This document shows, piece after piece, positions 4,875-21,033 of a stretch of 21,033 nt of DNA. Every line of letters begins with the position of its first letter. Positions within the stretch are counted from its first letter, which is position 1. The stretch lies in assembly GCF_003334335.1 (NCBI RefSeq), contig NZ_QOWQ01000051.1; one strand, 5' to 3'. The position numbers and the translations under genes were made by a program. The notes below the pieces were generated by a model. That model had not been told where the DNA came from. It saw nothing but the letters and a program-made list of their open reading frames with translations, and ran no database searches. The DNA comes from Escherichia coli (GTDB lineage: Bacteria; Pseudomonadota; Gammaproteobacteria; Enterobacterales; Enterobacteriaceae).

Positions 4875-4880
4875 GTCTGG

Positions 4881-5017
4881 CGTAGGCCGGATAAGACGTT
4901 TACGCCGCATCCGGCATTTGTGCGCTGATGCCTGATGCGACGCTGACGCGTCTTATCATGCCTACAAATCTGTACGCGAACCGTAGGCCGAATAATGCGT
5001 TCACGCCGCATCCGACC
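4881..5017. repeat. REP/BIME cluster (three REP palindromes) between gmhA and yafJ
   Basis: Imperfect palindromes of the E. coli REP type: gtaggccggataagacgtttacgccgcatccggca, gcctgatgcgacgctgacgcgtcttatcatgcctac and a third copy at 4981-5016. Confidence 0.8.
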
Positions 5018-7464: not shown

Positions 7465-8214
7465 ATGTCCTTGCCGTCGATTCCATCCTTTGTATTGTCG
7501 GGATTACTGTTGATTTGTTTGCCGTTTTCTTCATTTGCCAGCGCCACCACATCACATATCTCTTTCAGCTACGCCGCCCGCCAGCGGATGCAAAACCGTG
7601 CGCGTTTATTAAAACAGTACCAAACTCATCTGAAAAAGCAGGCCAGCTATATTGTGGAAGGCAATGCCGAAAGCAAAAGGGCGCTACGCCAGCACAACCG
7701 GGAGCAGATAAAACAGCATCCAGAATGGTTTCCTGCTCCGCTCAAGGCGAGTGACAGACGCTGGCAGGCGCTGGCGGAAAACAACCACTTTTTAAGCAGC
7801 GACCATCTGCATAACATTACCGAAGTGGCGATTCACCGCCTGGAGCAGCAGCTTGGCAAGCCTTACGTCTGGGGCGGTACGCGGCCTGATAAAGGCTTTG
7901 ACTGTAGCGGGTTGGTTTTTTATGCCTACAACAAGATCCTTGAGGCTAAGCTCCCGCGCACGGCCAATGAGATGTACCACTATCGCCGGGCAACGATTGT
8001 GGCGAACAACGACCTGCGCCGGGGAGATTTGCTGTTTTTCCATATCCACAGCCGCGAGATAGCCGATCATATGGGCGTGTATTTGGGCGATGGGCAATTT
8101 ATCGAGTCGCCACGTACCGGCGAAACCATTCGGATAAGCCGATTAGCCGAACCTTTCTGGCAGGACCATTTTTTGGGCGCGCGCAGGATTTTGACGGAAG
8201 AGACGATTTTGTAG
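7465..8214 (+). CDS. yafL: NlpC/P60-family putative peptidoglycan endopeptidase lipoprotein YafL
   Basis: Track ORF starts at a TTG (7405); the ATG at 7465 gives 249 aa with a signal/lipobox-like N-terminus. NlpC/P60 catalytic Cys context GFDCSGLVFYAY and downstream His are present. Confidence 0.8.
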   Translation: MSLPSIPSFVLSGLLLICLPFSSFASATTSHISFSYAARQRMQNRARLLKQYQTHLKKQASYIVEGNAESKRALRQHNREQIKQHPEWFPAPLKASDRRWQALAENNHFLSSDHLHNITEVAIHRLEQQLGKPYVWGGTRPDKGFDCSGLVFYAYNKILEAKLPRTANEMYHYRRATIVANNDLRRGDLLFFHIHSREIADHMGVYLGDGQFIESPRTGETIRISRLAEPFWQDHFLGARRILTEETIL

Positions 8215-8296
8215 GACGGATAAGGCGTTTACGCCGCATCCGGCAGTTGTACGCAGGTGCCTGATGCGACGCTGGCGCGTCTTATCATGCCTACGA
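8211..8296. repeat. REP pair (BIME) between yafL and rayT
   Basis: gtaggacggataaggcgtttacgccgcatccggca overlaps the yafL stop, followed by gcctgatgcgacgctggcgcgtcttatcatgcctac. Confidence 0.8.
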
Positions 8297-8389: not shown

Positions 8390-8887
8390 ATGTCTGAATA
8401 TCGTCGTTATTACATCAAGGGGGGAACATGGTTTTTCACGGTGAATTTACGAAATCGTCGAAGCCAACTTTTGACCACCCAGTACCAGATGCTCCGTCAC
8501 GCCATTATTAAAGTTAAGCGAGACAGGCCTTTTGAAATCAACGCCTGGGTCGTTTTGCCAGAGCATATGCACTGTATCTGGACATTACCTGAAGGCGATG
8601 ATGATTTTTCCTCGCGCTGGCGGGAAATTAAAAAGCAATTTACCCATGCTTGTGGATTGAAAAATATCTGGCAACCACGTTTTTGGGAGCACGCCATCCG
8701 CAATACCAAAGATTATAGGCATCATGTTGATTATATTTATATAAATCCAGTAAAGCATGGTTGGGTAAAGCAAGTGAGTGATTGGCCATTCTCAACGTTC
8801 CATCGCGATGTCGCGCGAGGGTTATATCCCATCGATTGGGCGGGGGACGTAACGGATTTTAGTGCCGGGGAGCGTATCATTTCATAA
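8390..8887 (+). CDS. rayT: REP-associated tyrosine transposase RayT (TnpA-REP, IS200/IS605 HUH family)
   Basis: 165 aa with the HUH motif (PEHMHCIW) and a C-terminal Tyr region. REP arrays flank it on both sides, the REPtron arrangement. Confidence 0.85.
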   Translation: MSEYRRYYIKGGTWFFTVNLRNRRSQLLTTQYQMLRHAIIKVKRDRPFEINAWVVLPEHMHCIWTLPEGDDDFSSRWREIKKQFTHACGLKNIWQPRFWEHAIRNTKDYRHHVDYIYINPVKHGWVKQVSDWPFSTFHRDVARGLYPIDWAGDVTDFSAGERIIS

Positions 8888-15485: not shown

Positions 15486-15602
<117 letters not shown>

Positions 15603-15726
15603 ATGGATAACTCATTGTTTACCATAAAATAATATTTTTATTATCGTTTAATTCGAACTTGTTAATCCCGCCGGTGATACGCTTCACAATATCCTGTTTT
15701 CTGTCGCTACTGATATCGTTCACCCT

Positions 15727-19711: not shown

Positions 19712-20422
19712 ATGACCATTGAAACACTGCGCGGGCGCTATCGCCTGCACCGCTTCCCGCCGCGCCAGCGTGCGGTGACCGGAGAACCGCTCACCGCCAG
19801 CATTAGCGCCGCCGATTACCAGCGCCAGTTGATGGACGGTTTTCAGGAAGGGCTGCAAAAAGGTTTTGCTCAGGGAATGACCGAAGGTCAGGAGCAGGGC
19901 TTTAGCGAAGGTCATCAGCAAGGTTTTGCCGAGGGGCGACGCCAGGGCTACACCGAAGGCAGTCTCGCCGGGCAGCAGGAAGGGCGCAAACAGTTTGTTG
20001 AGGCGGCGCAGCCGCTGGAAGCCATCACCGGTAAAGTGAACGACTTTCTCGCCCATATCGAACGTAAACAGCGGGAAGATTTGCTGCAACTGGTGGAAAA
20101 GGTGACGCGGCAGGTGATCCGCTGCGAACTGGCGCTGCAACCGACGCAGTTGCTGGCGCTGGTGGAAGAGGCGCTGGCGGCCTTCCCGGCGATGCCGGAA
20201 ACCCTGCAAGTGATGCTGAGTACGGAAGAGTTTAACCGCCTGCGCGACGCGGTGCCGGAAAAGGTCAGCGAATGGGGGCTGACGCCTTCGCCGGATCTGC
20301 CACCGGGCGAATGCCGGGTGATCACCGACAAATCCGAACTGGATATCGGCTGCGAGCATCGCCTTGAACAATGCATGACCGCGCTGAAAGAAACACTCAC
20401 GCCGGAGTCGCAGGGTGAGTGA
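19712..20422 (+). CDS. lfiH: Flagellar export ATPase regulator, FliH homolog (Flag-2 LfiH)
   Basis: 236 aa, positioned between the FliG and FliI homologs, with an N-terminal run of GxxxG repeats typical of FliH/YscL proteins. Confidence 0.75.
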   Translation: MTIETLRGRYRLHRFPPRQRAVTGEPLTASISAADYQRQLMDGFQEGLQKGFAQGMTEGQEQGFSEGHQQGFAEGRRQGYTEGSLAGQQEGRKQFVEAAQPLEAITGKVNDFLAHIERKQREDLLQLVEKVTRQVIRCELALQPTQLLALVEEALAAFPAMPETLQVMLSTEEFNRLRDAVPEKVSEWGLTPSPDLPPGECRVITDKSELDIGCEHRLEQCMTALKETLTPESQGE

Positions 20423-20956
20423 TTTTTCTGCGTTCGATAACGCCCTGCGCTCGCTGGAGTCGATCCCGCTGGCCCGCGTCGCCGGGCGGCTGGTGCGCCT
20501 TAACGGCATCCTGCTGGAGAGTGTCGGCTGCCCGCTAATGACCGGGCAGCTGTGCCGCATCGAAAGTGCCAATCACACGCTGATCGACGCGCAGGCCGTG
20601 GGCTTTAATCGCGACATCACCTATTTAATGCCGTTTAAACAGCCGGTCGGCCTGATGGCAGGCGCACGCGTCTTCCCGGAAGAAAAAGCCCACGACATCC
20701 TGATAGGCGAAAGCTGGTTAGGCCGCGTGGTGAATGGCCTCGGCGAACCGCTGGATGGCAAAGGCCGCCTGAACGGCAACGACCTTCTGCCGCCGTTGCC
20801 GCCCTCGGTTAATCCCTTAACTCGTCGTTCGGTAGACGAACCGCTGGACGTGGGCGTGAAAGCGATCAACGGCCTGCTGACCATCGGCAAAGGCCAGCGC
20901 GTCGGACTAATGGCAGGCAGCGGCGTCGGGAAAAGCGTGCTGCTGGGGATGATCCC
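20415..20956 (+). pseudogene. lfiI: Flagellum-specific ATPase FliI homolog (Flag-2 LfiI), 5' fragment truncated by IS186
   Basis: GTG start overlapping lfiH by 8 nt. FliI-like N-terminal domain and Walker A GSGVGKSVLLGM are present, then the reading frame runs into IS186 terminal sequence at about 20957. Only about 180 of an expected roughly 440-450 codons are present. Confidence 0.8.
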
Positions 20957-21033
20957 CATAAGCGCTAACTTAAGGGTTGTGGTATTACGCCTGATATGAT
21001 TTAACGTGCCGATGAATTACTCTCACGATAACT
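20957..21033 (+). mobile_element. IS186 (IS4 family) left end with the start of its transposase; element continues beyond the window
   Basis: The terminal sequence cataagcgctaacttaagggttg… matches the IS186 inverted repeat as I remember it. An ATG at 21012 opens MNYSHDN…, the IS186 transposase N-terminus. The preceding host sequence GGGGATGATCCCC fits the IS186 G-run/C-run target preference. Confidence 0.8.

Follow-up and report, generated by a model that had tools for sequence, protein, structure and literature searches.

An IS186 insertion in lfiI of the Escherichia coli Flag-2 cluster, at a site carrying a rare substitution

The sequence analysed here, referred to throughout as the window, is 21,033 nucleotides of Escherichia coli DNA and constitutes an entire draft contig (NZ_QOWQ01000051.1, assembly GCF_003334335.1). 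It contains flagellar genes in the order flhA, flhB, fliR, Q, P, N, M, a sigma-54 activator gene, fliE, F, G, H and I, collinear with the annotations of the complete genomes EC416 and TUM14664. This order, as given in PMC6993521, and the chromosomal position beside yafL and rayT are those of a locus for Flag-2, the poorly understood second flagellar system. Of the cluster-1 genes in the window, 13 are full length; the exception is lfiI, the gene for the export ATPase and FliI paralogue of this system (designated fliI by PGAP), whose start occupies the final 620 bases. The rayT gene, encoding a REP-associated tyrosine transposase, lies between yafL and lfhA (8390-8887), and blastn self-hits against TUM14664 revealed repeats of ~85 nt, likely REP/BIME elements, at several intergenic places (4880-4980, 8210-8295 and 15520-15603). 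Positions 1-77 are the terminus of an IS1414 (IS256-like) copy beside yafV, an insertion common to EC416, PEC1009, LR-64-2, LR-29-1, GDSC2BY4G and EEC_W5; most other strains match the window from position 78 only.

The lfiI frame has a GTG start that overlaps the end of lfiH, and is open through codon 180 (20952-20954), as the earlier note had read it. The native codons end ...GSGVGKSVLLGMI (also given as ...AGSGVGKSVLLGMI), after which the frame reads PISANLRVVVLRLI before terminating at a TGA (20997-20999). The Walker A motif (GSGVGKS, G168-S174) is retained and the break follows codon 180, placing the interruption just after this motif, as had been claimed. The features at the junction are listed in Table 1.

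Table 1. Features at the lfiI-IS186 junction, in window coordinates
Feature	Position	Strand	Evidence
lfiI 5′ fragment, Flag-2 FliI paralogue, codons 1-180	20415..20954	+	translation, NF005535.1, 2DPY/5B0O alignment
Insertion-truncated ORF, 194 aa: 180 native residues plus PISANLRVVVLRLI from the junction/IS	20415..20999	+	translation
Left copy of the 12-bp target-site duplication, GGGATGATCCCC	20946..20957	+	same geometry as K-12 IS186A and TUM14664 lfiI
SNP in lfiI codon 181, ACC to CCC (T181P)	20955..20955	+	junction/empty-site comparison
IS186 left terminal inverted repeat, CATAAGCGCTAACTTAAGGGTTG, 23 bp	20957..20979	+	identical at both ends of complete K-12 and TUM14664 copies
IS186 core, first 76 nt; contig ends within the element	20958..21033	+	76/76 vs K-12 IS186A
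insL transposase start (MNYSHDN...), same strand and frame as lfiI	21012..21033	+	WP_001300563.1 CDS in TUM14664, K-12 insL1

The uninterrupted LfiI (445 aa) scores 772 bits against the FliI equivalog model NF005535.1 (cut-off 715) and aligns end to end with Salmonella FliI (E = 6e-135; structures 2DPY/5B0O). The product encoded in the window, being truncated, falls below this cut-off with 287.7 bits and spans only profile positions 2-191 of 434; by profile and alignment it is a fragment of a true FliI family member. Alignment to the FliI structures indicates that the 194-aa stump retains the N-terminal domain and the P-loop and has nothing from the GERGRE segment on, so that the catalytic Glu, Walker B and the C-terminal domain are all absent. 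A protein of this predicted structure cannot be an active ATPase, and these losses would therefore inactivate LfiI. The 3′ fragment of lfiI opens with an in-frame ATG (M179), without a P-loop. An exact-protein look-up of the 194-aa stump returned no record, likely because short-k assemblies end before its stop codon and the product is then not called whole. Salmonella fliI null and truncation mutants are the nearest known counterparts: truncation after the P-loop costs LfiI these same parts, as in a null allele, and lfiH stays intact. A fliI single mutant is essentially non-motile; flagellar export without FliI can occur weakly, on the proton-motive force, if FliH is also absent. LfiI differs from FliI of Salmonella in being a paralogue within Flag-2.

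Beyond lfiI, IS186 makes up the terminal 77 bases of the window, beginning with the C at 20957. Over its first 76 nt the core does not differ from that of IS186A in K-12 MG1655, a match to an IS terminus that rules out chance, and the earlier assignment of the sequence from about 20957 to IS186 is thus borne out. The insL start codon was also correctly placed, at the position of the annotated CDS in TUM14664. Only codons 1-7 of insL (MNYSHDN) are within the window; the complete gene, which encodes the 370-aa DDE transposase InsL (WP_001300563.1), is present in the equivalent insertion in TUM14664. The terminal sequence and the 23-bp inverted repeat place the element in IS186, with the left end alone contained in the window. 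Thousands of IS186 copies in E. coli genomes match the end of the window. A comparison with IS-free lfiI loci had also been proposed: among 5,426 complete RefSeq genomes, the uninterrupted lfiI alleles (>1,000 complete E. coli genomes) match the window up to 20957 and not beyond. IS186, present in E. coli K-12 as IS186A, IS186B and IS186C, is also called IS421 and belongs to the IS4 family; its hot spots include the lon promoter, menC and fimA.

The complete genome of TUM14664 has IS186 at the same place in lfiI, with a core identical to that of K-12 IS186A (1337/1337). Its junctions, ...GGGGATGATCACC before the element and GGGATGATCACCCGCC... after it, constitute a 12-bp duplication, and the remaining 267 lfiI codons, lfiJ and the next gene directly follow. 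RefSeq annotates TUM14664 lfiI as two pseudogene fragments, one on either side of an 'IS4-like element IS421 family transposase'. The geometry is that of K-12 IS186A, in which the element is flanked by GGGGATCACTCCC and GGGATCACTCCCC; the duplication is 12 bp if the element is taken as the 1337-bp core ATAAGC...GCTTAT, and is the 10-bp GGATGATCCC if the terminal C and G are given to the IS. There is no second copy of lfiI in TUM14664, the sole complete genome with the insertion, and complete genomes generally have a median of one copy of the site and at most two.

Additional assemblies establish that this site has been struck repeatedly. With A at position 20955, IS186 is present in the forward orientation in TUM14664, in GCA_003175635.1, which has the local haplotype of TUM14664, and in metagenome ERZ27259050, where both junctions are seen in an EC416-like haplotype; it is present in the reverse orientation in ERZ27246386 (both junctions), GCA_021082365.1 and SRR12769686. 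With C at this position, the element is in the forward orientation in the window and in two groups of right-junction contigs, L035 (4 SRA samples) and L036 (2 SRA samples). The same 12 bp of lfiI are therefore occupied by IS186 in at least three independent forms. Among complete genomes EC416 is nearest to the window, with 4 SNPs over 20.9 kb; its lfiI is free of IS186, which dates the insertion to after the divergence from EC416. TUM14664, by contrast, differs from the window by ~2% over 21 kb. The insertion in the window is therefore recent and independent of that in TUM14664. lfiI is a natural IS186 hot spot, and one for which we found no description in the searchable literature. As at the other hot spots, either orientation occurs at the one site (PMC5009759, PMC6925257), and lfiI can be added to the lon promoter, menC and fimA among the places where this element lands recurrently.

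The window has GATCCCC immediately before ATAAGC, whereas TUM14664 and all of the uninterrupted alleles first examined have GATCACC. Every A-allele junction and empty site has A at 20955, and none of 1,248 complete genomes in which this region of lfiI is present has C there. Searching for exact matches to the protein expected from the 3′ fragment, with Pro as its third residue (MIPRQTK...), identified the L035 and L036 contigs, which read GCGCTTAT followed by GGGATGATCCCCCGCCAGACC. They begin with the IS186 right end, GTTCAACCCTTAAGTTAGCGCTTAT, oriented as in the window, continue into a copy of the duplication (GGGATGATCCCCCGCCAGACC) that also has the C, and then into the rest of lfiI, lfiJ and a cytidylyltransferase gene. 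They come from other sequencing runs. The right copy of the duplication is accordingly seen in contigs of other samples and, with the A allele, in TUM14664, and the window has the left copy. An uninterrupted, full-length T181P allele, with the site CTGGGGATGATCCCCCGCC, is present in two draft genomes, GCA_000356385.1 and GCA_000627905.1, the first of which differs from the window at only 2 of 2,543 compared positions.

Each copy of a target duplication keeps one parental strand. As the C is in both copies, it was therefore in the target before the element: the SNP came first and the IS second, and the T181P substitution is real and older than the insertion. Its presence in right-junction contigs and in uninterrupted alleles excludes a sequencing error or a post-insertion mutation; the same evidence speaks against an extra C of IS origin and against a 1-nt deletion combined with a shifted cut. 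In the second draft genome (GCA_000627905.1, JJMA01000025.1, 1309-2019), lfiH has a Q78* nonsense mutation and an 11-bp deletion near its 3′ end, lesions that suggest ongoing decay of Flag-2 cluster 1 in that lineage.

IS186 inserts at GGGG(N6/N7)CCCC, as established from 59 newly mapped insertions (Lee et al. 2016, PMC5009759) and quoted identically in PMC6925257; of these sites, 41 had a 6-bp core and 16 a 7-bp core, and an imperfect palindrome was seen in only 7, with insertion in either orientation (PMC5009759). The common lfiI allele, GGGGATGATCACCC, reads GGGG-ATGATCA-CCC, with a 7-bp core and one flank mismatch. The T181P empty site, GGGGATGATCCCCC, reads GGGG-ATGATC-CCCC, a perfect GGGG(N6)CCCC with a 6-bp core. 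The G-run/spacer/C-run target originally proposed is therefore accurate for this lineage, as its empty-site allele demonstrates, and imperfect in the usual allele. The motif GGGGATGATCCCC (20945-20957) is the sole GGGG(N5-7)CCCC match in the 21-kb window; a single match per window is not significant (shuffle mean 0.79), and its weight comes from its position exactly at the IS junction. In its terminus, inverted repeat, target and 12-bp duplication geometry, this insertion is like that of K-12 IS186A. It is unlike known IS186 sites in its location, lfiI, and in the point mutation that made an imperfect site perfect before the insertion.

We conclude, with a probability of about 0.88, that the window records a simple insertion of IS186 into lfiI of an E. 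coli Flag-2 cluster, with LfiI inactivated. The geometry of the insertion in TUM14664, the right-junction contigs with the rare SNP and the absence of a second lfiI copy from TUM14664 all support a simple insertion. The rare missense change ACC to CCC had first converted GGGG-ATGATCA-CCC to the perfect GGGG-ATGATC-CCCC. IS186, an IS4-family element with a 1337-bp core encoding the DDE transposase InsL, would then have recognised this GGGG(N6/N7)CCCC target, duplicated ~12 bp of it and inserted with insL in the direction of lfiI, splitting the gene after codon 180. The upstream part would yield the 194-aa stump, and the downstream 267 codons are predicted to lose normal expression in the split gene, as probably would lfiJ, on which a polar effect is likely. 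A promoter and terminator scan of the IS region found no promoter-like sites, with terminator-like sites at the level expected by chance, and is uninformative on polarity. Reading of the window stops 77 nt into IS186, and the right end of the element, the second copy of the duplication and the 3′ part of lfiI are read in other assemblies only; in this strain, the full element followed by the 3′ part of lfiI presumably lies beyond the contig end.

With the downstream side of the element out of view, the IS186 copy might instead mark the end point of a larger rearrangement, generated by recombination or an adjacent deletion involving another IS186, in which the remainder of lfiI and some of the Flag-2 genes beyond it were removed or displaced. 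En bloc deletions mediated by IS elements are described as common in flag-2 loci (PMC6993521), and IS copies in E. coli frequently recombine with one another (PMC5009759). Such an event predicts that, in the source genome, the IS186 right end does not continue into GGGATGATCCCCCGCCAG; all of the assemblies that show the other side, the rare C-allele contigs among them, have a simple insertion with a matching duplication, and we consider a rearrangement improbable. It would be more surprising still if the junction, or the C at 20955, were an artefact of assembly at a repeat-collapsed contig end and lfiI were really intact. Both contig ends do lie exactly 77 nt inside IS elements, as is typical of de Bruijn graph breaks, and the C was unique among the junctions first compared. 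A contig runs from unique lfiI sequence into an IS, however, only if reads cover the junction, the closed genome of TUM14664 has the same junction geometry, and there is independent confirmation of the C, both from uninterrupted alleles and from several sequencing runs that yielded right-junction contigs.

More plausible than either, although still on the unlikely side, is that IS186 entered a gene that was already dead, its function removed earlier by T181P, which places proline in the helix after the P-loop, or by decay of a silent Flag-2 locus. The SNP is older than the insertion, and T181P alone may have damaged LfiI: the aligned solved homologues have A, I or C at position 181, and never P. 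The lfiH lesions in one carrier of uninterrupted T181P, frameshifts in lfiI of other strains and the undetected expression of Flag-2 in E. coli EC958 (PMC4637896) point in the same direction. On the other side, the remaining 13 cluster-1 genes of the window all have their full length, and no pseudogene is flagged among the EC416 Flag-2 CDS shown, from lfhA to the gene for a FliA-like sigma factor. Prior loss of function would, in any case, add to a simple insertion as the explanation rather than replace it.

The insertion is ordinary in kind, combining a known element, a known target rule and the known tendency of flag-2 loci to decay. These loci contain 25 distinct transposase genes, IS4 family included, and reading frames of single genes are disrupted by transposase integration (De Maayer et al. 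2020, PMC6993521); the same survey noted frequent transposase disruptions in flag-2 and singled out lfgF and lfiG. The lfiI insertion is the same class of event. In E. coli EC958, neither LafA nor Flag-2-dependent motility was detected (Kakkanat et al. 2015, PMC4637896), and no Flag-2 expression or function in E. coli is shown in PMC3032704 or PMC4637896, which makes the effect of lfiI loss on phenotype uncertain. The earlier view that Flag-2 is probably non-functional in this strain is therefore reasonable for the ATPase, the catalytic parts of which are gone, and an overreach as a statement of phenotype. For annotation, lfiI here is a pseudogene split by an IS, and it would be a mistake to score the Flag-2 locus as intact.

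The additions made here are modest, a recurrent IS186 site in lfiI and a prior point mutation that made a perfect target, and neither changes understanding of IS186 or of flagellar export. T181P illustrates how a highly site-specific IS can gain a perfect target through one substitution, the opposite of the idea of escape by mutating the site discussed by Lee et al. (2016, PMC5009759). We advance only tentatively, as the less probable account, that IS186 has a natural hot spot in the part of lfiI coding for the P-loop, with at least three independent hits in both orientations, and that T181P in this lineage turned a degenerate site with a 7-bp core into a perfect one with a 6-bp core, priming the gene for capture by an IS. 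Should the alleles truly differ in insertion rate, they would exemplify, in nature, a transposon target made by a point mutation; a SNP-primed site together with recurrent hits could also mean that selection favours, and does not just tolerate, loss of the Flag-2 export ATPase.

Further lfiI alleles are interrupted by 1-nt indels, at this place or close to it. In L022 (CP024266.1, 2990-3004) and L024 (SRR13221426), the GGGG of the IS186 target is reduced to GGG; L023 has a deletion of 1 nt in 'atggcagg', and L027 an additional nucleotide in the A-run of GGGAAAAGCG. Such differences may be genuine frameshifts or sequencing errors at homopolymers, and we know of no link between such lfiI indels and IS186 excision.

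The TGA of the truncated lfiI frame precedes the insL ATG by 12 nt, and the two share both strand and frame. With this arrangement, transcription from the lfiE-J operon might read into insL and so could feed transposase expression.

A scan for the junction pattern gave 0 matches in the genome_contigs set and 17 in metagenome_contigs, all at other IS186 sites with the usual GGG...CCCC flanks. All 17 (L003-L019) conform to TTAT/GGG(G), then 4 to 7 nt, then CCCC(C), a biased sample as the scan pattern required the C-run. Contig ends at 77 nt into a repeat on both sides, as in the window, are a typical product of k=77-type short-read assembly, and mean that the window is a whole contig bounded by repeats, with the rest of each element unreadable there; the contig break at lfiI stems from IS186, and not from missing sequence. 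Most of the 17 metagenome junctions similarly lie ~30 or ~100 nt from a contig end, which shows that IS186 regularly breaks short-read assemblies.
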